Assembly (NCBI GenBank): GCA_947478005.1
Contig: CANJVG010000001.1
Location: 17,832 to 81,831, forward strand
DNA from: Bacteroidota bacterium
Lineage (GTDB): Bacteria > Bacteroidota > Bacteroidia > Chitinophagales > LD1
Direction: 5' to 3'
Length of the DNA stretch: 64,000 bases
In this document: one piece after another, positions 15,763 through 59,990 of the stretch
Layout of the letters: the number at the start of each line of letters is the position of its first letter
Position numbering within the stretch: the stretch's first letter is position 1
Program-made: the position numbers and the translations under genes
Notes under the pieces: model-generated
Seen by the model: only the letters and a program-made list of their open reading frames with translations
Told to the model about the DNA's origin: nothing
Database searches by the model: none

Positions 15763-15774
15763 TCGCTGTTGAAC

Positions 15775-37214: not shown

Positions 37215-38525
37215 CTATTTGCTGTTGCCTGCAAATAATTTCTTAGTGGTAGTTACACCATTGTTCTTAACACGAACTATTATTGAAGCTGCATTTAGAG
37301 TAGTTAAAGTCTTTGTATAAACAGATGTCTGCTCGAAGTTCTCGGCTGAAAGTTGCTGACCGGCCACATTGTAGATTTCAATTTCTGCATCCACTTTAGC
37401 CTCGTTGCTCATATCTATATATACTGTATTGTTACAAATCCAGATTCCTACAGAGCTCTTGTCGTTTACTAAGCTTATACTGGTTTCAATAACCTCTTTA
37501 GCGGTTACAGTAATTTGTTGAGAGCTAACGGCTATACATGCATTGTTATCGGCAGTAAGCGTCACAGTGAATGTGCCGGGAGTAGGAAAGTTACGGATAA
37601 AAGCTAAACCTGTGATAGTGTCGTTGCCGCCAAAATCCCAATTATTATTGATTGCATTTGTCGCTGTAGACGTGAAAGTAATGTCACCCCCTTCCTCTAT
37701 AGTAGTATCAGAAAATGTGAAAGAAGATTCTACCGGTTGCACACCACCTACCTGCACTTGTTTTACCACCGTGTAGTTATTGCTGTCTGTGAGGGTAATA
37801 GTATAAACACCTGTGCTGGCGTATAAAGCAATTGGAGTAGAGTCATTTAAGGTGCCGGTTGAAAGTATAGATGTACTATCAGAAGAAATTGTATAGCTCC
37901 AGCTTACAGATCCTGGTTGAGTTACGTTAATGATACCGGTTGTGCTGCATGTAGCATCGGTTGTAGAGGTAGTCATGGCTGGTGTAAAGTGCAGGGTAAA
38001 TCTACTTCTTGCATCATTTGTCATTCCGGTGAAACTATAATTGCCAGTTCTCGTATCATGTAGTATATGCATCTTCTTATCCTCCAGAATAATGAAATTA
38101 GTAGGGTCGAAAGTGTTCAATTCATCAAAACTCATGGTGAACTGACCGCCAAGACCGGGTGCAAAACCCATTTCAATGGAAGGAGTAGAGTTGATAGCTA
38201 TAAGAGTATTGCGGGACAACACTAAACTGTTGTTGTAAGAATATATACTCAGACGGTCAGGGTCGCCTCCTAATTTATTAGCATCATAAATAGGGTCAAA
38301 AGTATCCGTAGCCAAAACATTAAAGGCCACAATGGCACGATCTCTTAAGCCATTGGCATCATCTACATATATTGTCAACTGATGGTCGTTCACCAAACTT
38401 TGGAATGAACTATTTGTTTGAGCGTGAGCCTTCATAGCTATCAGTGCCTGAGCCAATGCCAGAATAACAAATACTACTCCTGCGGAAATTGTTCCTTTCT
38501 TAGATCTTGTGTTATTGTTTTCCAT
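37215..38525 (-). CDS. Secreted PKD-domain protein with a probable T9SS type A CTD
   Basis: Signal peptide (ALAQALIAMKAHAQ) and a PKD-like block (NNNWDFGGNDTITG...FPTPGTFTVTLTADNN). The C-terminal ~80 aa (EIEIYNVAGQQL...IIVRVKNNGVTTTKKLF) resemble a T9SS CTD. Confidence 0.75.
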   Translation of the reverse strand: MENNNTRSKKGTISAGVVFVILALAQALIAMKAHAQTNSSFQSLVNDHQLTIYVDDANGLRDRAIVAFNVLATDTFDPIYDANKLGGDPDRLSIYSYNNSLVLSRNTLIAINSTPSIEMGFAPGLGGQFTMSFDELNTFDPTNFIILEDKKMHILHDTRTGNYSFTGMTNDARSRFTLHFTPAMTTSTTDATCSTTGIINVTQPGSVSWSYTISSDSTSILSTGTLNDSTPIALYASTGVYTITLTDSNNYTVVKQVQVGGVQPVESSFTFSDTTIEEGGDITFTSTATNAINNNWDFGGNDTITGLAFIRNFPTPGTFTVTLTADNNACIAVSSQQITVTAKEVIETSISLVNDKSSVGIWICNNTVYIDMSNEAKVDAEIEIYNVAGQQLSAENFEQTSVYTKTLTTLNAASIIVRVKNNGVTTTKKLFAGNSK

Positions 38526-42950: not shown

Positions 42951-45623
42951 TTAATGAGGGAACTTGAAAATGTCTTTGGCTTTATTGGCGGCATCTTTTG
43001 CTACCTTGTCGGCTGCGTCTTTTGCTAATTTATTGGCTGCGTCTGTGGCGGCTTTTTGTGCCGCATCCTTGGCCTGTTGTTCTAACTGAGCTTTTTGTTT
43101 TTGCAGTTCTTCTTCTCCACGTTTCTTCAAATCATCTATTTGTTTTTTGGCTTCTTCTTCGGCTTTCTTTTTTAGATCATCCACCACACCCTTCGCCATG
43201 TCCTTACCAGATGAACCACCGGTTGTAACCTTTGAGAGACTAACGATTGGCTTAGCAGTAGTGCCGGTTACTTTGAAGAGGAACCCAATTACATCGGGCA
43301 TCGCAGAACCTAAGCCCGGAATTTTGGAAAGTAAACCTTGTGCATACGCAGTTGCAGGCCCGAGTTCTTTACTTGGCACATCCATGCGCATATCGTAGTT
43401 GATGCTTTGGTCGAAGCCGTTGGAGCCGGCTACGTTTACGTTATAGCCGTTTCCGAATTTTAAATCAGTCGGGTCAACAAATACTTTTCCGTCTTTGAAT
43501 TTGAGATTGGCTGTGGCGTTTTTCAATTCGAGATTTTGCAGGGCGGGGATTTTAGAAAGGGCAGTTACCTTTTCTAAGATGGGGAGACCTACGACTCTGG
43601 CCGAAGGAATTTCTACTTTACCTTCTCCTGTAAGCGAGTTGTAGTCAACGCTCATGTCGGGGTTGAGTTTGCCACTGCCTTTTAAGTTGCTGGAGAAACT
43701 TCCTTGGATGTATTTGATTACCGGAGCCATCTTCTCGCTCATGCCAACCGAAGTATAGGTTTTCTGCACATCGAAGTTCTTGATATCGTAAGTGAATGAT
43801 ACGTCAGGATGCTTGAGGTTCTTGGTTACATACTTAGCGCTGATGTTGGCGCTGCCGCCTAATAGATTGGCGAAGAGGTCGTTCAGATTGATGGCTTCGT
43901 CTTTAATCGTTACCTGTCCTTTTACATTTTCGAGAACCATTTTTTCATACAGGATTTTTCCGAAAGAAGAGTTGGCGGTGAAATCGATGTGAGCCGGAAC
44001 TTTGAAGTACTCAGTTTTTGCAGTGTCAACAGCCTTGGCGGTGGCAGGTGCGTTTTCATCTTTCTTCAACCATTCGTTGGCATCGAACTGGGTGGAGCGG
44101 AGATTGATGGTGCCTGATAAATCGCCCGTGCCGAAGGCGTAAGCCATGAAGTTATCAAGCGTTCCGTTGGCGTTGAAGTCGCTTTTGCCGATGGCGGATG
44201 AGAAATTATTGAGTGTGACGTTCTGTGGATTGAAGGTCATTTGCATATCCATCACGCGCACAGGCATTGGGGTTTGTTTGCTGTCGTAAACGAGGTTGGT
44301 TACTTTCATATTTCCTCCGGCACGAATGGCTGCGTAGTTCTTTTTGTCAATGTCGCTTTTCTTTCCCGCGAAATCGAGATTGATGTTGAGGAGACCCGTC
44401 ATGGTTTTGAGGCCTTCCATAGGGTAGAACTTCGGAACGCTGGATAAATCGACTTTGCCGCTGATGTTGGCCACCACATTAGGGTCACTAACGGGTGTCT
44501 TTACATTTATTTTAGCATCCACCGGATCGGTGCCGGCTTCCAGGTGGAGCTTGGAAATGTCCACCACCGTTAAATCTAAATCACCCTGGGGCTTGGTGAT
44601 GTTGGTGGCGATGAAAATGTTCTTTACCGCAACCGGTAAGGATGGATATTGGAACATACCATTATTTACCTTGAGGTCGAGATGGAAGGCGGGATAGTTT
44701 TTGTCTTTGTAAGTTCCCTTGACATCGCCAGCGAGGGCGAGGCTTCCGCTGGTTTTAATCTGGTCGAAATCTTTTTTGTAAACGGCAGGAATGAGCGATA
44801 GTATGTTTTTGAACTCCGCTTCTTTGGACTTGAACTTTACATCGAGATTCATTTCGTCTTTCTTGTTCTGCACAAAGCCATCGAACTGTAAGCCGAGAGC
44901 GTTGAGGGCGATGGAGTTTTCTTTGAAGGTGTATTTGCTGTTCGCATTATCAACCGATACATTTATTTCGGCATCGAGCTTAGCCCGGCTGAGGTAGGAA
45001 ACGGCTCCGCTGCGGTAGGTGAGTTCCGCAATGTTTGTTTTGGTAACAAAGTCATAAAGGTCGCTGGTTACATCGCCACGGCCCGCGAAATCAAGGTCGT
45101 GAATCTGCGCGAAGGAGTTTCCTTTTTTGTCATCATACTTTATTTCTCCGTTCTCAATCTTGTAGCTTTTTATTTGAAGCGAGAAGTTGGAAGTAGAGCT
45201 GGTGGTGGTTGATTTTTCACTGCTCGGTTTTACAATATCCCAATTGGCTTTTCCGGCTTCGTTTACTTTGGCGTTGATGTTTGGTTCAATCATGTTGAGG
45301 GCGATGAGTTTGTATTGTTCGCCTTTGATAACGCTCATTAAATCAACTGTGAAGTTTATGTTCTTCAGGTAAACGAGGGTATCGCCTTTGAAGTCATCTA
45401 CACCAACCACGCTGAGGTCGTTTAGCGAGAAGCTGAAATTGGGGAAGCTGCGCATTAGGGAGAGGCTGAAATCGCCATAGTCAACCTTGGCAGTGAGGTA
45501 GTTGTTTATTTCTTCTTTGACGCGGGCGTTTATTTTGTCTTTGAACAAAAAGGGAAGGGCTACGACAGCGGCTACTAGCAGGATGACGAAGATGGCGAAG
45601 CCTATCAGAATTTTTTTACCCAT
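42951..45623 (-). CDS. AsmA-family envelope protein with a C-terminal Lys/Ala/Glu-rich tail
   Basis: N-terminal TM anchor (ILIGFAIFVILLVAAVVALPFL), a long beta-rich body, and the final ~85 aa KKKAEEEAKKQIDDLKKRGEEELQKQKAQLEQQAKDAAQKAATDAANKLAKDAADKVAKDAANKAKD. I chose the ATG at 45623. Confidence 0.78.
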   Translation of the reverse strand: MGKKILIGFAIFVILLVAAVVALPFLFKDKINARVKEEINNYLTAKVDYGDFSLSLMRSFPNFSFSLNDLSVVGVDDFKGDTLVYLKNINFTVDLMSVIKGEQYKLIALNMIEPNINAKVNEAGKANWDIVKPSSEKSTTTSSTSNFSLQIKSYKIENGEIKYDDKKGNSFAQIHDLDFAGRGDVTSDLYDFVTKTNIAELTYRSGAVSYLSRAKLDAEINVSVDNANSKYTFKENSIALNALGLQFDGFVQNKKDEMNLDVKFKSKEAEFKNILSLIPAVYKKDFDQIKTSGSLALAGDVKGTYKDKNYPAFHLDLKVNNGMFQYPSLPVAVKNIFIATNITKPQGDLDLTVVDISKLHLEAGTDPVDAKINVKTPVSDPNVVANISGKVDLSSVPKFYPMEGLKTMTGLLNINLDFAGKKSDIDKKNYAAIRAGGNMKVTNLVYDSKQTPMPVRVMDMQMTFNPQNVTLNNFSSAIGKSDFNANGTLDNFMAYAFGTGDLSGTINLRSTQFDANEWLKKDENAPATAKAVDTAKTEYFKVPAHIDFTANSSFGKILYEKMVLENVKGQVTIKDEAINLNDLFANLLGGSANISAKYVTKNLKHPDVSFTYDIKNFDVQKTYTSVGMSEKMAPVIKYIQGSFSSNLKGSGKLNPDMSVDYNSLTGEGKVEIPSARVVGLPILEKVTALSKIPALQNLELKNATANLKFKDGKVFVDPTDLKFGNGYNVNVAGSNGFDQSINYDMRMDVPSKELGPATAYAQGLLSKIPGLGSAMPDVIGFLFKVTGTTAKPIVSLSKVTTGGSSGKDMAKGVVDDLKKKAEEEAKKQIDDLKKRGEEELQKQKAQLEQQAKDAAQKAATDAANKLAKDAADKVAKDAANKAKDIFKFPH

Positions 45624-45802
45624 GGCGATTGTATTTTTAGCGAATGTAGTGAATGACAATAATACAATGGTTTGTTTAGAAATGAATTTTCTGTTTGTGG
45701 TTTATTGTTTTTTTGTTTTTCGGTTCGTCCGGAATGAGGTTCTCTCGGAGGCGCGGAGTACTCGGAGGTTTTTTGAGTGGAAACGATGGGTGACGACTGT
45801 CA

Positions 45803-45985
45803 TAGCGTCAGTGAGAGGGGTAATAACGGCAGAATCACGTGCGATACGGAGCGTGAGAGGAGCGATTCGGGACGCGACATGCGCAATACGGAGGGCGAGA
45901 GGAGTGATTCGGAGCGTGATACGTGCAATACGGAGAGTGAGAGGAGTGATTCCGAGCGTGACACATGCGGTTCGGAGGGTTAGAG
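45803..45985. repeat. Tandem repeat with 42-bp period (about 4.3 copies), resolvable into alternating 21-bp half-units
   Basis: GTGAGAGG/GCGAGAGG anchors at 45811, 45853, 45895 and 45937 (exact 42-bp spacing). The half-units are ATACGGAGnGTGAGAGGAGyG and ATTCGGAGCGTGAyAcrTGCr. Confidence 0.85.
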
Positions 45986-46357
45986 ATGAGCCTTCAAGGG
46001 GTATTTATTGGATGAATTTGATGGAAATGGAAGGTTTTTTGATAGAAAGTGGGGTTTTGAAAGAAAGCCGCTCAAAAGGAGGAATGGAAAGACATTTTGA
46101 AAGCAAAAAGCAGAATACAGGTTAACGCAAAGTGATGGCGCAAAGAGCGCGAGAGAGGGGCCCTAGATCATTCCCATGTAAATTCCCGCTGAAATAGGCA
46201 GGGTGAAACAGAGGGAATGCACTCCACCAGCGTCTCGCTGAAAGCAACGAGGCACCTCCGCCAGCAGATGATATAAGATAGCAAAAAGGAGTGGGAAGGA
46301 GTAGCCCGACCAAAGCTTTGCGAGGAAACCTCCTGCTGGACTATTTTTATTGTCCCT

Positions 46358-46455: not shown

Positions 46456-48375
46456 ATGTCAGAAGAAATTTTAGAAACAAAAGAAGAAAAAGTAGAACAG
46501 AAGCCGGTTGCGGTGGTTTTGCATGACGATTTCGATTGGAACGTAGACAAGAGAAACGTGGTGACTTATACCGAAGCTGAGCGCATTCGCTATGATGCCG
46601 AGTATTCTTCTACCCTGAAGACCATCGAAAACGATGAGATTGTGAAGGGTATTGTAGTGGCATTGACCAATACCGATGTGGTCTTGAACATTGGATTTAA
46701 ATCAGACGGATTGGTTCCGCTTTCAGAATTCCGCGATGTGGAAGATTTGAAGGCAGGCGATGAGTTTGATGTGTATGTAGTGAATAAAGAAGACAAGAAA
46801 GGTATTTTGCAACTAAGCCGCAAAAATGCCCGCACTATGAAAGCGTGGGAAGAAATCGTATCGGCTCATAAAACAGGTATTGTGGTGCAGGGTAAAATTA
46901 TTTCGAAAACAAAAGGCGGTCTTATCGCTAATATTTTCGGAGTGGATACTTTCCTTCCGGGTTCTCAGATTGATGTGAAACCTATTACAGACTATGATGT
47001 GTATGTAGGTAAAACAATGGAGTTGAAGGTGGTGAAGATTAATGAAACCATTAAGAATGCCGTTGTATCTCACAAAGCATTGATTGAGTCGGATATCGAA
47101 TCGCAACGCGAAGCTATCATCGGTAAATTGGAGAAAGGACAGGTATTGGAAGGAACTATCAAGAACATTACTGATTTCGGTGCGTTTATCGACTTGGGTG
47201 GTGTGGATGGATTGCTTTACATCACTGATATTTCGTGGGGCCGTATCGGACATCCGAAAGAGGTGTTGGAACTGAACCAGAAGCTGAATGTGGTTGTATT
47301 GGATTACGATGATAACAAGAAACGTATTTCGCTTGGTTTAAAACAATTGCAACCGCATCCATGGGATACTTTGGATAAGGATATTGAATTGGGCAGCAAG
47401 GTGAAGGGCAAAATCGTAAACATTGAAGATTACGGTGCATTCCTGGAAATCACTCCTGGCGTTGAAGGTTTGGTTCACGTAAGTGAAGTTTCCTGGAGCA
47501 ATACTCCGGTGAACAGCCGCGAATTCTTCCACAGTGGCGATACCCATGAGGCTGTAGTAATGACGCTTGACCGTGAGGAAAGAAAAATGTCGCTTTCGTT
47601 AAAGAGAATGACAGAAGACCCTTGGGTGAAGATTGCAGAAAAATTCCCGATAGGAACCAAAACCAGAGGTACGGTTAAAAATATCACTCCTTATGGCGTG
47701 TTTGTAGAATTGACTGAAGGAATCGGAGGAATGGTTCACATCAGCGATTTATCATGGACAAAACGTTACAGCACCCCTAATGAATTTACCAAAGTAGGTA
47801 GCGAATTAGATGTTGTAGTGCTTGATATTGACAACGAAAACCGCAAACTGACCCTTGGTCATAAGCAAATTGAGGAAGATCCATGGGATTCATTCGAAAA
47901 TGTATTCCCTATCGGTTCTACCCATGAAGCAACCGTTCTTAATGCAGATGATAAAGGCGCTACAATTCTTTTGCCTTACGGCTTAGAAGCATTTGCTCCA
48001 AAGAAACACTTAGCTAAAGAGCAGGGTGGTTTCCTGGCTGCTGATGAAAAAGCAACCTTCAAAGTATTAGAGTTCAACCGCAACGACAAACGTATTCTGG
48101 TTTCTCATACCCGTATTTGGGAAGAAGTGAAACAGGAAACTGAAGACACCGAGCGTAAGGAAAAGAAGGTAGAACGCGAAAAGACAGCGAAGGTGGTAAA
48201 AACCCTACAGAAGAATGTAGAGAAAACAACCCTTGGTGATTTGAGCGCTTTGACTGAGCTTAAAGAAAAGATGGATAGCAAATCAGCCGCAGACGCAGTG
48301 AAGAAACTCGAAAAGAGAGAGGAAGCTGCTAACAATGCTTCGGCAGAAACTACAGACGATACAAAGCCAGAGTAA
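46456..48375 (+). CDS. rpsA: 30S ribosomal protein S1
   Basis: Six S1/OB repeats (e.g. GKIISKTKGGLIANIFGVDTFLPGSQ, GTIKNITDFGAFIDLGGVDGLLYITDISW, GKIVNIEDYGAFLEITPGVEGLVHVSEVSW), plus a Lys/Glu-rich C-terminal tail. Confidence 0.95.
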   Translation: MSEEILETKEEKVEQKPVAVVLHDDFDWNVDKRNVVTYTEAERIRYDAEYSSTLKTIENDEIVKGIVVALTNTDVVLNIGFKSDGLVPLSEFRDVEDLKAGDEFDVYVVNKEDKKGILQLSRKNARTMKAWEEIVSAHKTGIVVQGKIISKTKGGLIANIFGVDTFLPGSQIDVKPITDYDVYVGKTMELKVVKINETIKNAVVSHKALIESDIESQREAIIGKLEKGQVLEGTIKNITDFGAFIDLGGVDGLLYITDISWGRIGHPKEVLELNQKLNVVVLDYDDNKKRISLGLKQLQPHPWDTLDKDIELGSKVKGKIVNIEDYGAFLEITPGVEGLVHVSEVSWSNTPVNSREFFHSGDTHEAVVMTLDREERKMSLSLKRMTEDPWVKIAEKFPIGTKTRGTVKNITPYGVFVELTEGIGGMVHISDLSWTKRYSTPNEFTKVGSELDVVVLDIDNENRKLTLGHKQIEEDPWDSFENVFPIGSTHEATVLNADDKGATILLPYGLEAFAPKKHLAKEQGGFLAADEKATFKVLEFNRNDKRILVSHTRIWEEVKQETEDTERKEKKVEREKTAKVVKTLQKNVEKTTLGDLSALTELKEKMDSKSAADAVKKLEKREEAANNASAETTDDTKPE

Positions 48376-48397
48376 TTTCGATTACCGGTTTATTACA

Positions 48398-48433
48398 AAT
48401 CCCGCTTCTTGAAAAAGGAGCGGGATTTTTTTT
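48398..48433 (+). terminator. Rho-independent terminator of rpsA
   Basis: Stem ATCCCGCTTCT / AGGAGCGGGAT (one G.U pair), followed by TTTTTTTT. Confidence 0.75.
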
Positions 48434-48660
48434 GACCAATAGCGACATAGTTTCTCTACCAGTTTGTTAGAAACTTGCGTAATCCGGATAGCGATTTGAG
48501 GAGGTTAGTTAGTCGGTGTTGTTTGTTTTCACATCCTAATCCTAACGCGATAACAAAACCCAGCCTCGCTGGTCTAAACGAAGCCCGTTAAATACACTTA
48601 GAATAGATGAAAATTAGTCTGTTGAAATGGGATTAAACCTATTGAATATTCCCCTCCTAA

Positions 48661-50061
48661 TCAGAACTCAATAGCACTGATGGTTCGGTGAGCAATATCA
48701 GATGCTGTGGCAGCTTCACAAAAAATAGTCCTAGCCATGTTTCCCGACCGAAACCACTGTAAAACGAGCGTCTGGGGTACACCAGCCGTAACCACGATTG
48801 GTTTAGTGAAAGAAATATTCCAAGCAGTAACAACTCCAGTTGTGGAGTTCAAATCTTGGCCCGCAGAAACACTTCCACCCACCGAAACACCATTGACCAT
48901 CAGGCGGGCGAAAACATTCTGATGAACATTTGTACCTGTAGGGTCGCTTCTTCCTGAAATAGTAAATGATACCAGTAAATTAGATTTTACAGGGGTGAAA
49001 GTCAGGTTCAATCCAGTTGAAACATAGCCTCCTCCGTTCATACTGATATCGGTGGAACCGGTAATCGAGTGAACTAATACAGTAGGTATGGTAGTTGTAA
49101 GTGTGCCGCAAGGGTCAGTAGAGGAAAGTAAGTTAGTGCCGGTAGAATAAGATAAAGCTGTGTTGCAATCGCCAAAGCCGGTGGGACCGGTAACGCCTAT
49201 AGCACCGGTGGCGCCTGTAGCACCTACTCCGGTTACACCTGTAATGCCTTGCACCCCAATAACCCCCTGTGCGCCTGTGACACCTTGTATGCCTGTAGCT
49301 CCTTGTGCCCCTGTAACACCTGCAATACCTTGAAAGCCTGTGACGCCTTGCAGACCTGTAGCCCCTTGAATACCGGTAGCACCCACTGAGCCCGTAGCTC
49401 CGGTATTACCTTGATTGCCCGTGGCACCTGTTGCACCAGTGTTGCCATTTAGCCCGGTAGATCCCGTAAGCCCCACTGCTCCTGTGGCACCTGCAACACC
49501 TTGAGTGCCTGTTGCTCCTTGGATTCCGGCACCCGTTATTCCCTGAATCCCCTGAGCTCCTGTATTTCCAGCCGAACCTTGTGCTCCTGTTATGCCTTGT
49601 AGGCCTGTAGGTCCTGTGGTTCCATTTAACCCGTCAATACCTGAGGGTCCTGTAGAACCTGGGAGGCCCGGCAGCCCATTTGTCCCGCTCAGTCCTGTTG
49701 GTCCAATAATCCCGGCTGTTCCGGTGGCTCCATTTAGACCTGTTACACCAGGGGTCCCCTGAGGGCCCGTAGCACCCGCTGGTCCGGACAGCTGACAAAG
49801 CGAAGTCCAACCGCTACCGACCGCGTAATAGAAAAAGCAATTAAAATTTATATCGTAAACTAAGAGGCCATTTGCAGGGGAAACGATTGCTAAACGTTGT
49901 CCGGTCGTCATTCTCGGAGCAATAAAGCCTTTATCAGTAGCCTCCAGATGCAACACTGAACTGGCATCGGGATTGGCGAGTCCAATGCCCACATTATTTT
50001 GGGCTGTTGCTGAGAACCCGATGAGGAGAAGAAAGTAAAGGAGGATGTGGATATTCTTCAA
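48661..50061 (-). CDS. Collagen-like (G-X-Y) repeat protein, paralog A, with conserved N-terminal module and globular C-terminal domain
   Basis: TTG start and signal peptide. Conserved module [19 protein letters not shown]...[18 protein letters not shown]. About 205 aa of G-X-Y triplets (aa 93-297, DNA ~49171-49785), rich in T/Q/N at Y, with a few interruptions. The C-terminal domain is ~170 aa. Confidence 0.85.
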
Positions 50062-50126
50062 TGCAAAATAAATTAAGGTTTAAATTTAGATTATTTTTTG
50101 AATGGAATAACTCGAGGAACAGTTTT

Positions 50127-50369
50127 TTACCTAATCTTGCTGCTGGACACAGGAACGTTTGCATTCGATATCTCTGTATTTGACACTAATTTTCCACGTA
50201 CAGTATCAACATCCTCCTTTTTATAAGAAGCAGGTTTATTTGGAGAAATTTTGAAACCCGCAGAGGATCTTATCTTGCCCAAGGCATCTTTTCGATTAGA
50301 ATCAGCCTGTTGTGCTGAAGGAAAAAGACACAAAAAGTTGATAAAAATTATGGTAACGATAACCCGCAT
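50127..50369 (-). CDS. Small secreted hypothetical protein (80 aa) between the collagen-like paralogs
   Basis: Signal peptide MRVIVTIIFINFLCLFPSAQQ, then a hydrophilic ~60 aa. It starts 9 nt after the paralog B stop and ends 65 nt before the paralog A start. Confidence 0.5.
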   Translation of the reverse strand: MRVIVTIIFINFLCLFPSAQQADSNRKDALGKIRSSAGFKISPNKPASYKKEDVDTVRGKLVSNTEISNANVPVSSSKIR

Positions 50370-50378
50370 GAAACAATT

Positions 50379-52100
50379 TTATCTATAATGAACAATAAGT
50401 GTCATAGCTCCGGCCGTGGCATCTGTAAATCCATCGCCACCAATATTAACCGTTGCTCCTATTGTGCCTCCGAATCTCCTAGACCGAAAATCAATAGTAT
50501 GTGCACCGGCTCCCAGGACTACCATACCCATAATTGATCCGTTGGCAAAAGAGTTAGAGTTAGAGTTAACACAGGTAATTCGAGCAAAACCTCCGTAATT
50601 CATTAAGACTCCATCCACATGAAAAGCTATATCCACGGTATTGTATAAACCTGCGGTAGTAGCGGTATTCAGCATACCAATAGAGGCAAAACAAAAGACT
50701 TCAGCCGTTTGCCCGGCAGGGACAGTTATTGTTTGAGTCATGTTCGGGTTAACCACAAAAGCAACTCCGGCAACGTTTGTTCTAGCAGCAGTATTAATAA
50801 CATGATAATATTCAGTTCGTGGTTCTAACACCGTGATATCGCCATTAGCATCTACGCCCAGATTACGGGGGTATGAGTTGGTAGGAAATGTTGCGACCGG
50901 ATTAAAGCCTGCTGCATTTCCAAAGGCATCTACACGAATGGTAGGTTGTTTAACGGTAAAGGCCGGATTGGTTACCCCTCCACCATAGGTGCCGGCAGCG
51001 GTAATATTACCTTGGCGAACCTGCCCTGAACCGGCACTTGTGCTATAGATACCACTAATGTGTAAGGTTCTTACAGGAGCAGGCAATCCTATCCCTACAT
51101 TTCCGTTAGCCAATATACGAGCCTTCTCGATATTATTTGTTCTGAAAACTAAATCAATATTATCCGTGGTACCTAAAAAATTAGTCGCAGGTGCTGTTCC
51201 TGAATTGCCTGTTATTTTCCAAAACACACCGTTCGCATCCGAAGGTGCCCACTGAACTCCGTTGAATAACAATACCTCGTTTGGCAAAGGAGCGGTAGCA
51301 CTAATTCCAATCCCCTGTAACCCCACCACCGTAGGATTAGGATAAATTCCGGATAAATCGCCCCCGGCAGCCCCCAAAGGACCGGTAGGGCCAGTTGCAC
51401 CGGTGTCTCCTGTAAAGCCGGTTATTCCCTGTGCTCCTGTAATACCCTGTAGACCCTGAACGCCTGTTACCCCTTGAATTCCTTGGGCACCGGTAATACC
51501 TTGAATACCTTGTACTCCTGTAACACCTTGGATTCCTTGTGTGCCAGTTACTCCTTGAATGCCGGTGGGACCTGCGATACCCTGCGCGCCCGTAGCTCCT
51601 GTACTTCCGTTAACACCTGTCGGACCTATGTTTCCGTTCAAACCATTAATACCTGTAGCTCCCGTAACACCAGTGGTACCTGTTGCTCCGGCATTTCCAT
51701 TTAAACCATTCGTGCCTGGAACACCTGCGCTTCCTGTTGCTCCTGTTACACCGTTACTGCCGTTTGCACCTGTAACACCCTGTACTCCCTGCACGCCTGC
51801 TGGACCGGAAGGACCGGCATTTTGGCAAAGAGAAATCCATCCTCCACCTGTTGTGTAATAGAAGAAGCAATTAAAATCTAGGTCATAAACCAAAAGACCA
51901 TTTGCGGGTGCAGCTATAGCCGAGCGTTGGACAGTAGTCATACGAGGTGCTATAAAACCCTTATCGCTAGACTCTAAATGAAGAACCGCGCTGGCGTCAG
52001 GATTTGATAAACCGATACCAACATTGTTTTGTGCCATTACAGAACTACTTGGCAGTAAATGAAAAAAGCAGAAGCAAAGAAGGAAGAAAATATTTCTCAT
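50379..52100 (-). CDS. Collagen-like (G-X-Y) repeat protein, paralog B, with an extended C-terminal region
   Basis: Same N-terminal module as paralog A ([19 protein letters not shown]...[17 protein letters not shown]). G-X-Y region at aa ~96-246 (DNA ~51363-51815). A ~330-aa C-terminal region follows and includes [43 protein letters not shown]. Confidence 0.85.
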
Positions 52101-52409
52101 AGGTTACAATAGGAATGGACAAATGTAAGGAAAACGAATTTAACATCTATATAGAGATGAAAATAATAAGACAAACGTTGTTCACAACATGTGAATTAGA
52201 GAAATACTTACGTTCAACGATGCGAACAGTTGAAATACACTTCTTTTATTTTGGTCAATAATTCCCATTGCTCCACTCCTCTCCCATTCACAGAGCAAAT
52301 ATGACATTGCTCAAAAAAATGAAACAATCCAGCGCTTGTTTCGTATAGCTAAACTGTTGCATGAAATTGAAGGCTTTACGCAACGGATAAATAAAAAACC
52401 GGAATTGGC

Positions 52410-55400
52410 ATGAAGAAGTTTACACGTGCTTTTGTATTACTTACCGCAATTTGCTGTCTTTGTTTGCCGGCCCAAGCGGCTGTTTTTATCAACAAAACTC
52501 AAGTAAACGTAAGTTGCAAAGGAGGAAACAACGGAAGTATTGACATTACACCAAGTGGTGGTTCTGCCCCCTATACTTATAATTGGGGTGGAGCAATTAC
52601 GACACAGGACAGAAGTAATTTAACGGCTGGAACTTATAGCATTACTGTCTCTGATTTTTTTGGTGTTTCCGCCTCTCTGTCTATTACCATTACCGAGCCT
52701 ACATTCATAACGACTACAAAATCAATTACAAGTGTTTTTTGTGGTGGTGGCAACACAGGAGCCATACAACTAACTGCTAGCGGAGGAACACCTGGTTACA
52801 CATACATCTGGAATGATTTGTCAACCACTCCCAACAGAAGCAACCTTACAGCAGCCAATTATTATGTAACCATTACTGACTCTAAAGGCTGCACTAAAAT
52901 TGATTCTGCCAATGTTACTCAGCCACCTGGAATGGTTCTTTCTAAAACAACTACGAATGTAACTTGTGGAAGCGGTGCAAACGGAGCCATAAACCTCACT
53001 GTTCAATTTGGTGTTCCGGGTTATAGCTATCTATGGAATGGAGGAGCTACTACGGAAGATAGAACCGGAATAGCTGCCGGGAGTTATGTGGTTACTGTAA
53101 CCGATGCTTCAGGCTGCTCAGCATCTCTGTCTGCCACAGTTGGACAATCCGGTAGCACAATGGGGATTAACAGCAATTCAGTTATGCCTTCTTGCTATGG
53201 CGGAAGCAACGGAACTATTACGGTAACGTCAGTAGTAGGAAGTGTAGGTCCTTATACTTATGCATGGAGCGATGGTCCTACCACACAAAGCCGGACAGGA
53301 TTAGCTGCGGGCTCCTACACTGTAACAGCTACATCAAGTACAGGGTGCACAACATCAAATATTATCAATGTAGCGCAACCTCCACTTCTTTCAGTGGTTC
53401 TAGTACCATTTTCACTTTCCTGCAATGCAAGTAATAATGGAGCAATTAATACTACTGCAAGTGGAGGAACAGGCTCATATTCTTATGTTTGGAATGATGG
53501 TTCCCATCTTAGAAACAGAACAGGACTACCAGCTGGTAACTATATTATAACGGTAACAGATGCCAAGGGCTGTACTGTTGTCGACACAGCAGTTGTACCC
53601 GAGCCACTTATGCTGGTATTAACCCAAACACCAACACCCCTTGCTTGCATCGGTGGGCCTACTGGTTCGGTAACTGCAAATGCAACCGGAGGAACTGAAC
53701 CCTACAATTATTGGTGGGGAGGAGGCGTAATTACACAAACCATTTCGAATGTTGGTGCAGGAACCTATTGCGCCACCGTTACGGATAACCATGGATGTAC
53801 AGCATCCGCTTGTGCAAATATTCCCGTTTTTATTCCATTGAGTGTTACAACCACTCAAACGAACGTCATCTGTTATGGAGCAAATACAGGCTCCATAAAT
53901 GTTACCCCATCAAATGGAACATCACCTTACACTTATTTATGGAGCAACGGAAGTTTATCCCAAAATCGCACTGCTCTTCCTGCGGGAACTTACACCGTAA
54001 CTATTTCCGATGCAAATCCCTGTACTGTTTCTCAAACTATAACCATTACGCAGCCTCTGTTTCCATTACAAATAAACTCGACTATCGCAGACGCTATGTG
54101 CTATGGCAACAGTAACGGAAGTATCAATATCACAGTCATTAATGGAACTTCTCCATATTCCTATAATTGGGGAAATGGTATAACAACGCAAAACAGAACC
54201 GCTCTAGTCACAGGAACATATCCTTTGACAGTAACTGACATTAACTCCTGTTCTGTAAGTTCTAGTTTTTTTGTAAGTCAGCCTACCCTCTTAGTCGTTT
54301 CGCCAACCGTTGCAAATGTTAGTTGTTTTGGAGGCAGTAATGGTTCTATTACTTTAGGTGTAACCGGCAGCTTTGCACCTTATACTTATAGCTGGAATAA
54401 CGGTTCAGGTAGTCCAATCAGAAATGGTTTGCTTGCCGGAAATTACTTCGTAACAGTGACTGACAATCACACATGTACCGCTACATCAAGTGCTGTAGTA
54501 AATCAACCAACCGCGGTAGCAATTGTTGTGAGCCATGGTGATGCACCCTGTTTTGGTACAAGCAACGGCTGGATAAACTTGGTTGTATCGGAAGGTGTAG
54601 CACCTTACTCTTACAATTGGGGCAACGGTATTTTTACGCAAAATAGAACATCGCTGTCGGCAGGTAGTTATCCTGTAACTGTAACAGACAATGCAGGATG
54701 TACTGCGACTGCTTCTGCAACTATCAGCCAACCTACGGCTATCACTGTATCTTCTTCGGTTATCAATGCTACTTGCTTTGGTGGCAACAACGGCTCCATT
54801 AATCTAAGCGTTAGTGGAGGTACTTCACCTTATACCTACAACTGGGCAGGCAATATTACTACTCCTATCAGAACCAATTTGGGTGGAGGAACTTATGCTG
54901 TTACCGTCACAGATGCTCAAAGCTGCACGGCTACACATAGCGCTTTTGTAGGTCCGGCCTCCGGTCTAAGCATTACGCCTATTGTAACTAACGTATCTTG
55001 CAATGCCGGAACCAATGGCTCCATTTCTTTATCGGTTTCAGGAGCTACGCCACCCTATACATTTAGCTGGGCCAATGGTGGAGGCACATTGCCAAACAGA
55101 ACCGGTCTTTCAGCAAATTCCTATACTGTAACTGTAACTGATAATTTAGGCTGTACAGCTTCAAATACTTCAACTGTTATACAACCATCTGTAATTTCCG
55201 TAACCACGAACGTTACCAACGCAAACTGTTTTGGCGGCAACAATGGGGCTATAGTTGTTGGTGTAAGCGGTGGTACTTCGCCATATTCTTTTAACTGGAG
55301 TTCAGGAGCATTTTCTCAGAACTTAAATTTACTTTCAGCGGGAAACTATACCGTTACTATTACCGATAATGCCAACTGTAGTCTTCTTAGCACCAGTGTC

Positions 55401-58400
55401 GTAAGTCAAGGAACTGCTATTCTCATCACAGGCACCGTAACGAACACAACTTGCAATGGAGGAAATATCGGTGCCATTAATCTTTCTGTAACCGGGGGAG
55501 TTGGACCCTATACATATAATTGGGGACCCGGTTTAGTCATGCAGAACAGAACAGGTCTCTCAGCAGGCACTTATATTGTAACCGTTAGTGACAATGTTGG
55601 ATGTACAGCCTCCAAATCGTTTGTTGTTAGTCAACCAGGCGGCATTACCGCTTCTTCAACTACTACCAATGTAGCCTGCAACGGAGGTAACAATGGAACC
55701 ATTATCCTAACAGTAGCGGGTGGAACTTCACCTTATACTTACAATTGGGGAGGAGGTTTTGTTACACCGAATAGAAATAACCTTGTAGCCGGCTCTTATA
55801 CCGTTACAATTACGGACAATGCGAATTGCAGTATCAGTCATACTGCAGTTATTGCACAAACAACTTCTCTCAATATTTCCCCCGTAATTACAAATGTAAG
55901 TTGCAATGGACAAAGCAATGGAGCTATAAATTTAACTATTACAGGCGGTGCAACTCCATATACTTATAATTGGGGGAACGCCATAACCACACCTGGCAGA
56001 ACTGGTCTTTCAGCAGGGTCATACGTTGTTACAATAACAGACAATTCTAACTGTACTTTATCCAGCACGATGAGCGTAAATCAACCAAACGTGCTTTCAG
56101 TTATTCCAACCATAACCAATGCCGCTTGTACCGGAGGTAATACCGGTGCTATTAACATTACAGTAAACGGAGGCACCGCTCCTTATGCTTTTAATTGGGG
56201 TGGAAATATAACTACACAGGATAGAATAAATATTCCTGCCGGGAACTATTCTTTAACCGTTACCGATAACGCTAATTGTACTGCTTCTATTCCCTCCATT
56301 GTTGTTCAGGCGGTCAATTTGACCTTATCACCTGTAATCACAAATGTTACTTGTTACAATGGGAACAATGGTACCATTAGTGTAACCGCAGGTGCAGGAA
56401 CGGCCCCTTATTCTTATAATTGGGGAAACAATATCGTATCGCAAAACAGGGCCAATCTACAAGCAGGCACTTATAACGTGACGGCTACAGATATTGCGGG
56501 TTGCTCAGGTACTGGCTCAAACATTATTACACAACCTGCTGCTATTACGGTTACGCCTATTATCACTAATGCTTCATGCAACGGAGGAAACAATGGAACA
56601 ATTAGTCTTACCCCAAACGGAGGAACCGCTCCATACTCTTTCTTATGGACTAACGGAGCAACTACATCCGGCAGAACAGGCCTTATACAAGGTTCTTATC
56701 CTGTTACTGTTTCTGATAACAATATGTGCAGCTTCAACACAAACATAACAGTAAATCAGGCAGCGCCAATGGTGGTTAACAATACCAAATCGAATGTTGC
56801 CTGTTTTGGTGCGGCTACAGGAAGTATAAACCTAAGCATCATTGGCGGCAATGCACCTTATGGTTTCCTTTGGAGCAATGCCGCCAGCACTCAAAATATT
56901 TCAGGTTTGGTTGCGAATAGCTATAACGTAACTGTAACAGATGCCACAACCTGTACTGCAAGCACTTCTGTCTCCATTACACAAGCGCCACAGATTACTA
57001 CATCCATATCAACCATCAATGCTACCTGTTTTGGGTGGAGCAGCGGTCAAATTGATTTAACGGTAAGCGGTGGAACCGGAGCTTATGGATATTTGTGGAG
57101 CAATGCCGCCACCACGCAGGATTTGTTGGGAGTAGCGGCCAATACTTACACCGTAACCGTTCATGATGCCAATAGTTGTACCGTAACGGCAAGTACCACC
57201 ATAACTCAGCCCGCACAATTAGTATTGACTTCTACCAAAATTAATGCTTCTTGTTTTAGTAGTTCAACGGGCAGTATCGATTTATCGGTAAGCGGAGGTG
57301 CAGCTCCCTACACTTACGCATGGAGTAATGCAGCTGCTTCACAAGATATTTCAAATCTTACGGCTGCATCCTACAATGTAATCGTAAATGACAATAATGC
57401 CTGTAGTGCATCTACGTCTGTTGCAATTACACAACCTTCTGCATTAGTTGCATCTCAAACGCATACTAATGTAAGCTGCAACGGAGGGGCGAATGGCACT
57501 ATAAATACAGCTGTAACCGGAGGGACTTACCCTTACTCTTATAACTGGGGTGGTGGAAATACTTTGCCAAACAGAACTAATCTTTCGGCTGGCAATTTCA
57601 CTATCACTGTAAATGATTCTAAAGGTTGTAGCGTCACCGCCACATCTATCATAAGTGAACCGGCACCTATCGCATTTGCCTTTGCAAAAACGAATGTGGT
57701 TTGCAGTGGTTCATCAACCGGAAGCATTGACGCCACCATAAGCGGAGGCACGGGTGCTTATACTTATCATTGGAATACAAATGCATTGACACAGGATTTG
57801 TGGAACTTGAACGCAGGCAACTATTCCTTAACCGTTACAGATGCCAACACCTGCACCTCTTCTGCTATGGTTGCTATTGCACAACCGGCTCCGCTCACTG
57901 TTGTTCTAACGCATACAGATATTAGTTGCTTTGGTGCTCATAATGGATCTATAATGGCCAATGTATCGGGTGGAAACGGGGGGTATGTTTTCGATTGGAG
58001 CAACGGAGCCACTACTGCGAATCTGAATAATCTTCCTCCTAATAACTATGTGCTTTCGTTGAGCGATGCCGCTGGCTGCGCCACCAGTATTGCGCTGAGT
58101 ATTATAGAGCCATCGGCACTTACTTTAGCTGAAGCCCATAGTAACATTACCTGCAACGGAGCCGCTAACGGAAATATCCACATTACCGCAACAGGCGGCA
58201 CAGGAAACTATTCCTATGCCTGGAGCAATGGTTCAAGCACGCCAACTATTTCTTCTCTGCTTCCAAATAATTATACTATTACTGTATCAGATGCCAAAGG
58301 ATGCACCGCTTCTAAAGCCATAAGTATTACGCAGCCTGCTCCGCTGGTTGTAAGCGAAACACATCAGCCTTATGCTTGTTCAGGAAATGCCGGAGCCATT

Positions 58401-59990
58401 GACATTACGGTAAGTGGAGGTAATCTGCCTTATACTTATCTTTGGAACAACCATGCCATCACCGAAGACATTAGCAATCTGAATGGCGGAACCTATTCCG
58501 TAGTTGTTTCGGATATTAACGCTTGCTCGTCTACAACAGCCGTTTCCATTTCTGTGCTTACATCACTAAGCACTACTGTTACGCATACCGACTTACTCTG
58601 CAATGGCATTAGCACCGGTTCTATTCATACCGTGGTAACAGGAGGTTCTTCACCTTATACTTTTAACTGGAATACCGGAGCTGCCAGCCAAGATTTGAAT
58701 GCTTTGGCAGCAGGTAGCTATTCGGCAGTAATTACCGATGCCAATCACTGTTCTGTTTCTGCTGCAGCTGTTCTCAAACAGCCTGCCCCTGTTGCTATCA
58801 ACATCAGTCCGAAGCCTGTAAGCTGCTTTGGATTCAGTGATGGAGAACTAAGCATTCAAGCCTTTGGCGGTACCGCCCCTTATACTTATAATTGGGATAA
58901 CGCATCATCTGATTCAACAATTAAATCCATACCAGCCGGGTCTTACGATGTAACCGTCACTGATGCAAACAGTTGTAAAACAAATTTCACAACCCTGACC
59001 GTTACTCAACCTGCTCAACTAACAGTAAGTTCATATGTCGTAAATGTAGGCTGTGCCAGCACTAACGATGGTGAGTTGCACTTTAAGGCAGAGGGCGGAG
59101 TCCCTCCTTATATTTATGAAAGCCTGAACAGTCACCTTGCCATGGACATGATGAATCTTCCAACCGGAGATTATACTGTAACCGTAACAGACAATAATGG
59201 ATGCCAAACAAGTAAGGTAGAGGTAATTGGTTTAGCCCCTCCGCTTCAACTTACGCCTCAAGTCAAAAACCAATCGTGTGCCGAGGTGAAGAACGGAGCT
59301 GTTAGTTTGAATATAACAGGTGGCACCCCTGTTTTCAATTATCTATGGAGCAATGGCGATACGTTGTCAGCCCTATCCTCCTTACCCCAAGGTCAGTATT
59401 CTGTTACTGTTTCTGACTCGCGCAGATGCTCTGCCGAAGCCAGCTTTGCACTTGCGGTTGATTATGAATTGCAGATTGATGCCACTAAATCTACCACCAT
59501 CAATTTGGGCGAATCATTACTATTGAGTGTGGTTGTCAATACCGACCACAACAATCAATATACCTGGACTCCTGCTGAAAACATAACTTGCTCTACTTGC
59601 CAAAATACGTTGACGGCACCGACCGTAACTACCCTTTACACCGTAAATGTTGTAGATGCCAATGGTTGCAAAGCGGTAGATACCTTGACGGTAGAAGTAA
59701 AATCAGTGAGCGACATTTTTATTCCGAATGCGTTTTCACCAAATGGCGATGGGCAAAATGATTTCTTACAAATCTATGGTAACACTGGCACCTTGGCCTT
59801 TGTAGATTTTATGGTGTTTGACCGCTGGGGCGAGAAGGTTTTTGAATCGGGCAACGCCAACTTTAGTTGGGATGGAACCTACAAAGGTGAACTGGTCCCT
59901 CCGGGAGCATATATCTATACCATGAAGGCTGTATTTATGAACGGATATGCACGGAACGATTTCAAAGGTAGTGTAACAGTACTGAAATAG
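52410..59990 (+). CDS. Giant SprB-repeat cell-surface protein (2526 aa) with a T9SS type B (gliding-motility-associated) C-terminal domain
   Basis: Signal peptide. I counted 31 tandem ~75-aa repeats by the signature NVSC.GG.NG.I.......GG..PY.Y.W...........L.AG.Y.VTVTD...C. C-terminus: IFIPNAFSPNGDGQNDFLQIYG...FMVFDRWGEKVFES...WDGTYKGELVPPGAYIYTMKAVF...KGSVTVLK. Confidence 0.9.
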   Translation: MKKFTRAFVLLTAICCLCLPAQAAVFINKTQVNVSCKGGNNGSIDITPSGGSAPYTYNWGGAITTQDRSNLTAGTYSITVSDFFGVSASLSITITEPTFITTTKSITSVFCGGGNTGAIQLTASGGTPGYTYIWNDLSTTPNRSNLTAANYYVTITDSKGCTKIDSANVTQPPGMVLSKTTTNVTCGSGANGAINLTVQFGVPGYSYLWNGGATTEDRTGIAAGSYVVTVTDASGCSASLSATVGQSGSTMGINSNSVMPSCYGGSNGTITVTSVVGSVGPYTYAWSDGPTTQSRTGLAAGSYTVTATSSTGCTTSNIINVAQPPLLSVVLVPFSLSCNASNNGAINTTASGGTGSYSYVWNDGSHLRNRTGLPAGNYIITVTDAKGCTVVDTAVVPEPLMLVLTQTPTPLACIGGPTGSVTANATGGTEPYNYWWGGGVITQTISNVGAGTYCATVTDNHGCTASACANIPVFIPLSVTTTQTNVICYGANTGSINVTPSNGTSPYTYLWSNGSLSQNRTALPAGTYTVTISDANPCTVSQTITITQPLFPLQINSTIADAMCYGNSNGSINITVINGTSPYSYNWGNGITTQNRTALVTGTYPLTVTDINSCSVSSSFFVSQPTLLVVSPTVANVSCFGGSNGSITLGVTGSFAPYTYSWNNGSGSPIRNGLLAGNYFVTVTDNHTCTATSSAVVNQPTAVAIVVSHGDAPCFGTSNGWINLVVSEGVAPYSYNWGNGIFTQNRTSLSAGSYPVTVTDNAGCTATASATISQPTAITVSSSVINATCFGGNNGSINLSVSGGTSPYTYNWAGNITTPIRTNLGGGTYAVTVTDAQSCTATHSAFVGPASGLSITPIVTNVSCNAGTNGSISLSVSGATPPYTFSWANGGGTLPNRTGLSANSYTVTVTDNLGCTASNTSTVIQPSVISVTTNVTNANCFGGNNGAIVVGVSGGTSPYSFNWSSGAFSQNLNLLSAGNYTVTITDNANCSLLSTSVVSQGTAILITGTVTNTTCNGGNIGAINLSVTGGVGPYTYNWGPGLVMQNRTGLSAGTYIVTVSDNVGCTASKSFVVSQPGGITASSTTTNVACNGGNNGTIILTVAGGTSPYTYNWGGGFVTPNRNNLVAGSYTVTITDNANCSISHTAVIAQTTSLNISPVITNVSCNGQSNGAINLTITGGATPYTYNWGNAITTPGRTGLSAGSYVVTITDNSNCTLSSTMSVNQPNVLSVIPTITNAACTGGNTGAINITVNGGTAPYAFNWGGNITTQDRINIPAGNYSLTVTDNANCTASIPSIVVQAVNLTLSPVITNVTCYNGNNGTISVTAGAGTAPYSYNWGNNIVSQNRANLQAGTYNVTATDIAGCSGTGSNIITQPAAITVTPIITNASCNGGNNGTISLTPNGGTAPYSFLWTNGATTSGRTGLIQGSYPVTVSDNNMCSFNTNITVNQAAPMVVNNTKSNVACFGAATGSINLSIIGGNAPYGFLWSNAASTQNISGLVANSYNVTVTDATTCTASTSVSITQAPQITTSISTINATCFGWSSGQIDLTVSGGTGAYGYLWSNAATTQDLLGVAANTYTVTVHDANSCTVTASTTITQPAQLVLTSTKINASCFSSSTGSIDLSVSGGAAPYTYAWSNAAASQDISNLTAASYNVIVNDNNACSASTSVAITQPSALVASQTHTNVSCNGGANGTINTAVTGGTYPYSYNWGGGNTLPNRTNLSAGNFTITVNDSKGCSVTATSIISEPAPIAFAFAKTNVVCSGSSTGSIDATISGGTGAYTYHWNTNALTQDLWNLNAGNYSLTVTDANTCTSSAMVAIAQPAPLTVVLTHTDISCFGAHNGSIMANVSGGNGGYVFDWSNGATTANLNNLPPNNYVLSLSDAAGCATSIALSIIEPSALTLAEAHSNITCNGAANGNIHITATGGTGNYSYAWSNGSSTPTISSLLPNNYTITVSDAKGCTASKAISITQPAPLVVSETHQPYACSGNAGAIDITVSGGNLPYTYLWNNHAITEDISNLNGGTYSVVVSDINACSSTTAVSISVLTSLSTTVTHTDLLCNGISTGSIHTVVTGGSSPYTFNWNTGAASQDLNALAAGSYSAVITDANHCSVSAAAVLKQPAPVAINISPKPVSCFGFSDGELSIQAFGGTAPYTYNWDNASSDSTIKSIPAGSYDVTVTDANSCKTNFTTLTVTQPAQLTVSSYVVNVGCASTNDGELHFKAEGGVPPYIYESLNSHLAMDMMNLPTGDYTVTVTDNNGCQTSKVEVIGLAPPLQLTPQVKNQSCAEVKNGAVSLNITGGTPVFNYLWSNGDTLSALSSLPQGQYSVTVSDSRRCSAEASFALAVDYELQIDATKSTTINLGESLLLSVVVNTDHNNQYTWTPAENITCSTCQNTLTAPTVTTLYTVNVVDANGCKAVDTLTVEVKSVSDIFIPNAFSPNGDGQNDFLQIYGNTGTLAFVDFMVFDRWGEKVFESGNANFSWDGTYKGELVPPGAYIYTMKAVFMNGYARNDFKGSVTVLK

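Follow-up and report, generated by a model that had tools for sequence, protein, structure and literature searches.

In a 64,000-nucleotide (nt) stretch of a Bacteroidota genome (Chitinophagales; GCA_947478005.1, contig CANJVG010000001.1), hereafter called the window, three minus-strand open reading frames (ORFs) follow one another in the order A, S, B. Genes A (50379..52100) and B (48661..50061) encode paralogous collagen-like proteins of 573 and 466 amino acids (aa), and gene S (50127..50369), separated from them by gaps of 9 nt (A-S) and 65 nt (S-B), encodes an 80-aa protein with a signal peptide; the ORF calls agree here with an earlier note made from the DNA letters alone (the original prediction). 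The main new result is that fibre proteins of this kind, which have no type IX secretion system (T9SS) C-terminal domain (CTD), share a conserved gene neighbourhood with genes whose products carry a type-B CTD. We consider it reasonably probable (about 60%) that A and B act at the cell surface as trimeric fibre adhesins, with a functional coupling to type-B cargo of the T9SS.

Gene neighbourhood of the fibre family

A and B begin, after their signal peptides, with a common module of ~72 aa (the N-module). A search with the N-module of A at E<=1e-3 retrieved 37,016 representative proteins, 5,957 of them with E<=1e-10, and at least 433 confirmed loci with close relatives were found in species-representative genomes, nearly all of them from Chitinophagales, Flavobacteriales (Fluviicola, Crocinitomicaceae) or Sphingobacteriales. 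We surveyed the +/-6 kb flanks at 80 species-representative genome loci, using hidden Markov models (HMMs) for the CTDs and a signal-peptide test that were crude and home-made. In each of the 95 N-module ORFs of the survey the module falls within the first 60 aa, and collagen runs are present in 88. The flanks hold 52 type-B-CTD genes; 48 immediately adjoin an N-module gene, and 37 of these adjoining genes lie on the same strand, within 150 nt upstream of it. In the A orthologues of Chitinophagales metagenome-assembled genomes (MAGs), the fibre gene is divergent from that of a PKD/type-B-CTD adhesin of 935-1,244 aa and is followed after 2-10 nt by a signal-peptide ORF of 77-84 aa, while at survey loci L006 and L007 a B-type head is found in cassettes ordered type-B-CTD protein, fibre, small ORF. 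The original prediction had suggested a link between the operon and an SprB-type adhesin, and an adjacency to type-B-CTD genes that is conserved across orders strengthens it.

The type-B-CTD partners of 420-600 aa share an N-domain of ~330 aa with 30-50% identity across orders. This domain, seen at L051:4141-5190 and at 34 other loci (e.g. L006:4709-5700 and L030:4604-5630), had no match in Pfam, NCBIfam or the PDB and, as judged from its sequence, looks like an unannotated family. No CTD was detected in any surveyed N-module ORF, those of partnerless fibres included, and the idea that partnerless fibres bear a CTD of their own was rejected accordingly. For A, B and S themselves, neither a type-A (PF18962) nor a type-B (TIGR04131 / CHU_C) T9SS CTD was found with Pfam, NCBIfam or a home-made HMM, and A and B have no conserved lipobox; the claim that both fibres lack a T9SS CTD and a lipobox was thus borne out.

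A second conserved neighbour is a small ORF. A signal-peptide ORF of 60-125 aa is located within 20 nt after 21 of the 72 complete fibres, compared with 3 of 300 background genes (p ~1e-13), and 20 of these 21 fibres also adjoin a CTD gene. The small ORF accompanies short fibres with A/B-type heads (17/24) much more often than other fibres (4/48; p ~1e-7). At the A-S-B locus, S has a signal peptide with cleavage at PSA|QQ and a 61-aa mature part that is polar, basic (pI 10.1) and of low hydrophobicity, while the fibres A and B are acidic (pI 5.7-5.8). An ORF at the position of S is syntenic in orthologous loci with only 16-25% identity to S, and a word-index search with S returned 8 clusters only. 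Across loci the small proteins are alike in having a signal peptide that ends in (S/A)|Q, a polar, usually basic mature part of low hydrophobicity and a Lys/Arg-rich C-terminus. S is probably a disordered, secreted protein that tracks with fibres bearing a TNF-like head.

Three further observations concern the family as a whole. The N-module often occurs in 3-11 copies inside proteins of up to 6,840 aa, and it is therefore a general Bacteroidota fibre building block rather than a dedicated N-terminal anchor. A locus labelled as the gammaproteobacterium Glaciecola amylolytica THG-3.7 (L069; CP034120.1, 3476258-3488470) holds two complete partner-fibre cassettes whose partners have T9SS type-B CTDs and 62-75% identity to Fluviicola partners; this genome is probably mislabelled or contaminated. 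At long collagen repeats, assembly breaks (an N run) or frameshifts split fibres (L006:7800-8000; L007:5139-8000), and the family is likely to be undercounted and truncated in MAGs.

Predicted architecture of A and B

A, S and B all have a signal peptide with the cleavage context A|Q, so that Gln would be the mature N-terminus of each chain. These sites fit the Bacteroidetes 'Q-rule', by which signal peptidase I substrates carry an N-terminal pyroglutamate. A and B are colinear from residue 1, with 59% identity over 264 aa. The signal peptide of A (aa 1-23; 52032..52100, minus strand as for all A and B features) has its predicted cleavage at VMA|QNN and is conserved in the paralogue and in orthologues. 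The N-module follows directly in both proteins, at aa 24-95 of A, where it begins QNNVGIG (51816..52031), and at aa 21-92 of B (49786..50001); the two copies are 77% identical, which confirms the shared module of ~70 aa that had been predicted. A precomputed upstream annotation places PF26696 'PTL_trimer' and Collagen on A and B, and PF26696 also on homologues. Because the presence of the annotation tracks the presence of the module among homologues, PF26696 appears to be the N-module. In the monomer model of B, N-module residues 50-90 form a small helix and a three-stranded meander (pLDDT, the predicted local confidence score, ~78), with the first half (NNVGIG...LHLE) not resolved.

In the close N-module clade, two Cys residues never vary (NCF...SLC). 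They are Cys78 and Cys92 in A (codons 51867-51869 and 51825-51827) and Cys75 and Cys89 in B (49837-49839 and 49795-49797), and the second stands 3-4 residues before the first triplet of the collagen-like region. A disulfide made by the pair, within one chain or between chains, might lock the triple helix where it begins, much as happens in other collagens.

The collagen-like region of A (aa 96-248; 51357..51815) consists of 51 uninterrupted Gly-X-Y (GXY) triplets, and that of B (aa 93-297; 49171..49785) of 67 triplets (29+33+5) with two 2-residue breaks; G-X-Y stretches of ~150 and ~205 residues had been claimed, and these are what we found. At 0.286 nm per residue, the stalks would measure ~44 nm and ~57 nm if triple-helical. 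Both match Pfam Collagen (PF01391) well above the cut-off of 27.2 bits, at E 1e-23 (83 bits) for A and E 6e-29 (100 bits) for B. T, Q and N predominate at position Y, where some A also occurs, position X holds V, A and I, and Pro makes up ~7% of the X/Y positions. The composition proposed in the original prediction therefore stands as regards length, scarcity of Pro and T, Q or N at Y, but not as regards Val, which sits at X and not at Y.

Both proteins were claimed to end in beta-rich domains, and the structural models agree. We obtained AlphaFold2 monomer models for aa 246-573 of A, from an 18-sequence alignment, and for the whole of B, from a hand-checked alignment. The head of A (aa 420-573; 50382..50843) is modelled as an all-beta jelly roll of the TNF/C1q type (pLDDT ~90) and that of B (aa 298-466; 48664..49170) as a TNF/C1q-like jelly roll (pLDDT 70-97). 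In Foldseek comparisons with the PDB, the A head matched BxpB (8d02), ExsF (9h3d), ExsFA, C1q (6z6v), Pgp3, TNF ligands and phage fibre tips, and among lectins PLTL (9ib7; target-normalised TM-score, TMt, 0.70) and BC2L-C-Nt (2wq4; TMt 0.71, root-mean-square deviation 3.2 Å). The top match of the B head was the C-terminal domain of F-BclA (9h38, E 1.4e-5), followed by Pgp3, BC2L-C, PLTL and C1q-like proteins including C1ql1. Collagen plus C1q-type fibres of giant viruses and phages matched in a viral structure library, and the structures matched by the A and B heads are all trimeric folds. Both heads are thus confidently predicted, at the level of the models, to be of the TNF/C1q jelly-roll class. 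Neither head matched a Pfam family, even with the limit relaxed to E<=10, and neither gave a profile match to C1q or TNF. The B-type head is rare in sequence, with 4 homologues found. When the A-head and B-head profiles were compared with hhalign, 123 colinear columns aligned at E 0.002-0.005 with a probability of 7-14%; with this marginal score we claim a shared fold, not homology. The suggested parallel to BclA and C1q, which Foldseek was to check, is upheld in the same sense, as fold resemblance and not as family membership.

Between stalk and head, A alone has a neck of the beta-helix type (aa 249-419; 50844..51356). Its first part, aa ~250-360 (GDLSGxYPNPxV...), is common to many Bacteroidota fibres that end in a Peptidase_S74 chaperone, a phage Collar or a T9SS CTD. 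Sequence searches of Pfam, NCBIfam and the PDB with the isolated N-module, the C-terminal region of A and the B head gave only one weak match, to the MAT fibres of Bdellovibrio. For the neck this match was later confirmed by a profile search, in which it hit the crystallised MAT fibres Bd2133 (8ond) at E 3.5e-10 and 8ojn at E 6.2e-8.

The matches of the A head bear on which end of the fibre is attached. In the Bacillus exosporium, collagen-like proteins are held through their N-terminal peptides by BxpB/ExsF, and BxpB and the ExsF-peptide anchoring complex are among the best matches of this head. The polarity might accordingly be the reverse of what we propose, with the TNF-like head as the anchor, capturing S or another peptide, and the N-module as the free end. 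The correlation of the small ORF with the type of head and not with the N-module speaks for such an arrangement, as does the pairing of a basic S with acidic fibres. However, the stalked jelly-roll head is distal in BclA, C1q, MAT and phage fibres, which are a better layout match than the stalk-less BxpB, and the poor conservation of S among syntenic copies and the few clusters found with it would be unusual for a specific docking peptide. We regard reversed polarity as quite unlikely.

Proposed surface display and competing placements

We hypothesize that A and B are exported by Sec and cleaved by signal peptidase I at the A|Q site, and that each assembles as a homotrimer, as collagen repeats require and as is typical of every matched head fold. 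The N-module, which is of a phage-tail-fibre type, would register and hold the three chains at the proximal end, and a Pro-poor GXT/GXQ triple helix of the lengths computed above would form the stalk. At the distal end, a trimeric TNF/C1q-type head, preceded in A by the extra beta-helix neck, would bind a ligand; the analogy to BC2L-C, PLTL and the MAT tips makes a glycan the most likely one. Because neither fibre has a T9SS signal or a lipid anchor, display at the surface would depend on a co-encoded type-B-CTD protein. At the A-S-B locus this would be the giant adhesin encoded divergently from A (52410..59990, plus strand; 2,526 aa), which has 30 SprB repeats and a CHU_C / T9SS type-B CTD and lies as the original prediction had placed it; in most relatives, a dedicated partner of ~420-600 aa, encoded immediately upstream, would serve the same role. 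PorP-like proteins hold type-B cargo on the surface (PMC9143113). S may serve the head as a factor for assembly or docking.

Several findings weigh against this proposal. Roughly half of the N-module fibres in the survey, for the most part long ones of ~650-1,270 aa, are CTD-less and also have no type-B-CTD gene next to them, and T9SS coupling is therefore not a universal export route of the family. At the A-S-B locus itself, the case for a partnership is less strong than for the canonical cassette, since the giant is divergent, not co-directional, and has no ~330-aa partner N-domain, which is absent from the whole window; no PorP/SprF-like gene was seen flanking the giant, and no small ORF directly follows B. 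The giant is similar to the L002-type adhesins over its C-terminal ~660 aa only, at 24% identity. In the monomer models, the N-module at aa 20-45 and the neck of A are of low confidence; for the neck this is expected where a trimeric fibre is modelled as a monomer. Lastly, we know of no established mechanism by which T9SS carries a CTD-less protein.

A bolder version of the proposal, which we put forward tentatively and hold to be doubtful rather than probable, is that the type-B-CTD partner with its ~330-aa N-domain, the CTD-less TNF-headed collagen fibre and the small disordered secreted protein form an undescribed Bacteroidota module for T9SS 'hitchhiking'. The folded trimeric fibre would cross the outer membrane and be anchored by riding on its CTD-bearing partner, S-like proteins would be periplasmic assembly or docking factors, and the pairing of the A-S-B operon with the SprB-repeat giant would represent one variant of this three-gene system.

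The sequence features of A and B also fit placements other than the cell surface. With a Sec signal peptide as the sole export signal, no CTD, lipobox or beta-barrel found, and half of the family without a T9SS neighbour, the trimers might be confined to the periplasm or sit on the inner side of the outer membrane, where they could serve, for instance, as spacers or connectors. The Gram-negative periplasm is roughly 20-30 nm wide, and stalks of 44-57 nm exceed it; TNF-like lectin heads and layouts of the MAT/BclA type are known from outward-facing fibres, and the tight linkage to secreted type-B-CTD adhesins points outwards as well. A location inside the envelope is thus unlikely.

The absence of a detectable anchoring signal in A and B would equally suit proteins that are shed into the medium, a biofilm or a sheath and act there as a cross-linking matrix or as soluble collagen-like lectins. 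Many bacterial TNF-like lectins of the same fold are soluble (PLTL, BC2L-C), and a part in biofilm formation has been attributed to bacterial collagen-like proteins (PMC4319854). A shed protein, however, still needs a route across the outer membrane, and the conserved pairing with cell-attached type-B-CTD adhesins favours a cell-associated assembly. We judge release to be improbable, and retain a T9SS-coupled surface fibre as the preferred reading.

The linkage between fibre and type-B cargo offers a concrete hypothesis for how CTD-less proteins reach the Bacteroidota surface, and it bears on the role of type-B-CTD proteins without adjacent PorP/SprF genes. Cultured carriers such as Fluviicola chungangensis make the type-B-partner hypothesis testable. 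By analogy with the lectins they resemble, the A and B heads are candidate new glycan-binding lectins of freshwater bacteria.

Locus context and comparison with known systems

A, S and B are probably co-transcribed from one promoter upstream of A, as read from the DNA signals. Upstream of A, 20-27 nt before its start codon, there is a Bacteroidetes-type -7 promoter box, TACATTTG (52120..52127, minus strand), and in a regex scan this box was the sole TAnnTTTG on the minus strand within 48300-52450. A terminator-like hairpin followed by a T-run (48562..48585, minus strand) is located 76 nt downstream of the stop codon of B, and no comparable hairpin was found between A, S and B. The single transcript that had been predicted is therefore plausible, the lone box before A and the hairpin found only after B being consistent with it. 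A sigma-70 promoter scan gave scores not above those of shuffled controls, and a search for RNA-seq runs with reads of the locus returned none. The G+C content of S (0.38) is low compared with A (0.47) and B (0.51), and Gly-rich collagen codons probably explain most of this difference.

Two start codons matter for the automated annotation of these fibre genes. B starts with TTG, and the public gene call of A starts at Met22 (552 aa; window 52037-52100), which would remove the signal peptide; this call is probably wrong because the signal peptide is kept in the paralogue and in all orthologues. We rejected the 552-aa entry as a length variant of A, as it is merely the alternative start at Met22.

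The window is ordinary Bacteroidota chromosome and not a prophage. It contains gyrA, rpsA, genes for TonB-dependent receptors, an AsmA-family protein, a histidine kinase, a glycosyltransferase, radical-SAM proteins and T9SS type-A cargo, and no phage or contractile-system genes were found among its ORFs scanned with Pfam and NCBIfam. It is also rich in T9SS cargo: five further ORFs end in type-A CTD-like domains (8894-11386, 14512-15762, 15769-16791, 30760-32442 and 37215-38525), three of them supported by Pfam and two by a home-made HMM only. A 902-aa ORF between a radical-SAM gene and rpsA (42951-45659, minus strand) has no Pfam match, and at its 5' end it overlaps with a 207-aa ORF that runs the other way (45502-46125). 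The locus sequence occurs in freshwater and lake metagenomes, and its closest relatives are Chitinophagales MAGs.

This context decides against A and B as orphaned tail-fibre genes of a decayed prophage or extracellular contractile injection system (eCIS). PHROG tail-fibre families do match A and B, mainly through the collagen repeats, phages and giant viruses commonly have fibres that combine collagen with C1q, and Bacteroidota have eCIS fibres that include C1q, S74 or collagen parts (PMC12923769). The N-module itself occurs on viral contigs, where 5 of the 8 module-bearing proteins scanned match PHROG tail-fibre families. However, only 13 N-module loci in IMG/VR match (13 viral contigs), at 34-56% identity, and in viral proteins the module is internal; these proteins lack collagen, and neither a CTD gene nor a small ORF accompanies them. 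Homologues are overwhelmingly found in cellular contexts and not confined to prophage tail-fibre modules, and the same chromosomal synteny is seen in the orthologues of several MAGs, with the cellular flanks described above. In addition, A and B both have Sec signal peptides; to our knowledge, phage and eCIS fibres are cytoplasmic proteins. The N-module is thus shared with phage fibres, yet an origin of the A-S-B locus as a phage remnant, or as one of an eCIS, is largely excluded and in our view highly improbable.

Much is known of fibres with a collagen stalk and a TNF/C1q head from Bacillus spores, complement C1q and viruses, and MAT fibres have reportedly been shown of late to mediate prey recognition by Bdellovibrio. 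Literature searches (PF26696/PTL; collagen with type-B CTD; collagen with SprB) found no description of a system like the present one.

The surface collagen-like adhesins Scl1/Scl2 of Streptococcus and Lcl of Legionella have an N-terminal trimerising domain, whereas A and B have no LPXTG and differ in their terminal domains. On the corresponding NCBIfam models A and B score 62-96 bits against cut-offs of 325-500, the collagen part alone matching, and their non-collagen regions have no Pfam or NCBIfam match. Phage and giant-virus fibres share with A and B the collagen repeats, C1q-like tips and S74-type relatives, and tail-fibre proteins of Bacteroidota phages contain motifs of the N-module and of the neck. 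Unlike these, A and B have signal peptides, an N-module at the mature N-terminus, a chromosomal context with T9SS-cargo neighbours, and no virion genes around them. Members of the C1q/TNF superfamily and the lectins BC2L-C-Nt and PLTL have the same jelly-roll fold (TMt 0.5-0.71) at 8-19% identity to the heads; C1q also has the layout of collagen stalk plus globular head, but no Pfam C1q/TNF match was found in A or B.

BclA and F-BclA, of the Bacillus exosporium and endospore appendages, resemble A and B in a GXT-rich, Pro-poor collagen stalk with a C-terminal TNF/C1q-like head, and the structural matches described above tie the F-BclA C-terminal domain to the B head and BxpB/ExsF to the A head. 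There is no membership by sequence, as BclA (1wck) aligns to A and B in the collagen part only, and A and B differ in coming from a Gram-negative organism, in Sec export, in having no exosporium-targeting N-terminal motif and in their N-terminal module.

The MAT fibres (Bd2133, Bd2439, Bd2734) start with a signal peptide and a conserved, beta-rich N-terminal domain of ~130 aa, continue as a beta-helix and carry swappable tips, which include a TNF-like lectin (PMC10769870), and the best published matches of the Bd2734 tip are BC2L-C (2WQ4) and C1q-like structures (PMC10769870). A and B share with them a signal peptide followed directly by an N-terminal module, a predicted trimeric fibre and interchangeable C-terminal tips; the TNF-like tips match the same BC2L-C/C1q-like structures as the A and B heads, and in both groups there are relatives that carry S74 or other tips at their ends. 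The MAT beta-helix is also homologous in sequence to the neck of A, B having no neck. A and B differ from the MAT fibres in their stalk, which is a collagen-like triple helix in place of a beta/coiled one. We claim no homology between the ~130-aa MAT N-domain and the ~72-aa N-module (putatively PF26696). The N-module profile was compared with the crystallised C-terminal fragment of Bd2133, on which it scored a weak E 0.12. A further difference is the host of A and B, a Bacteroidota bacterium with a T9SS, and for MAT genes no linkage to type-B-CTD genes or to a small secreted ORF is described. Taken together, the profile match of the neck and a MAT layout with TNF-like tips that match the same structures lead us to describe A and B best as Bacteroidota counterparts of MAT fibres with a BclA-like collagen triple-helix stalk. 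In building such hybrids of BclA/C1q-type and MAT fibres, Bacteroidota would be drawing on an N-module that is very common among them.

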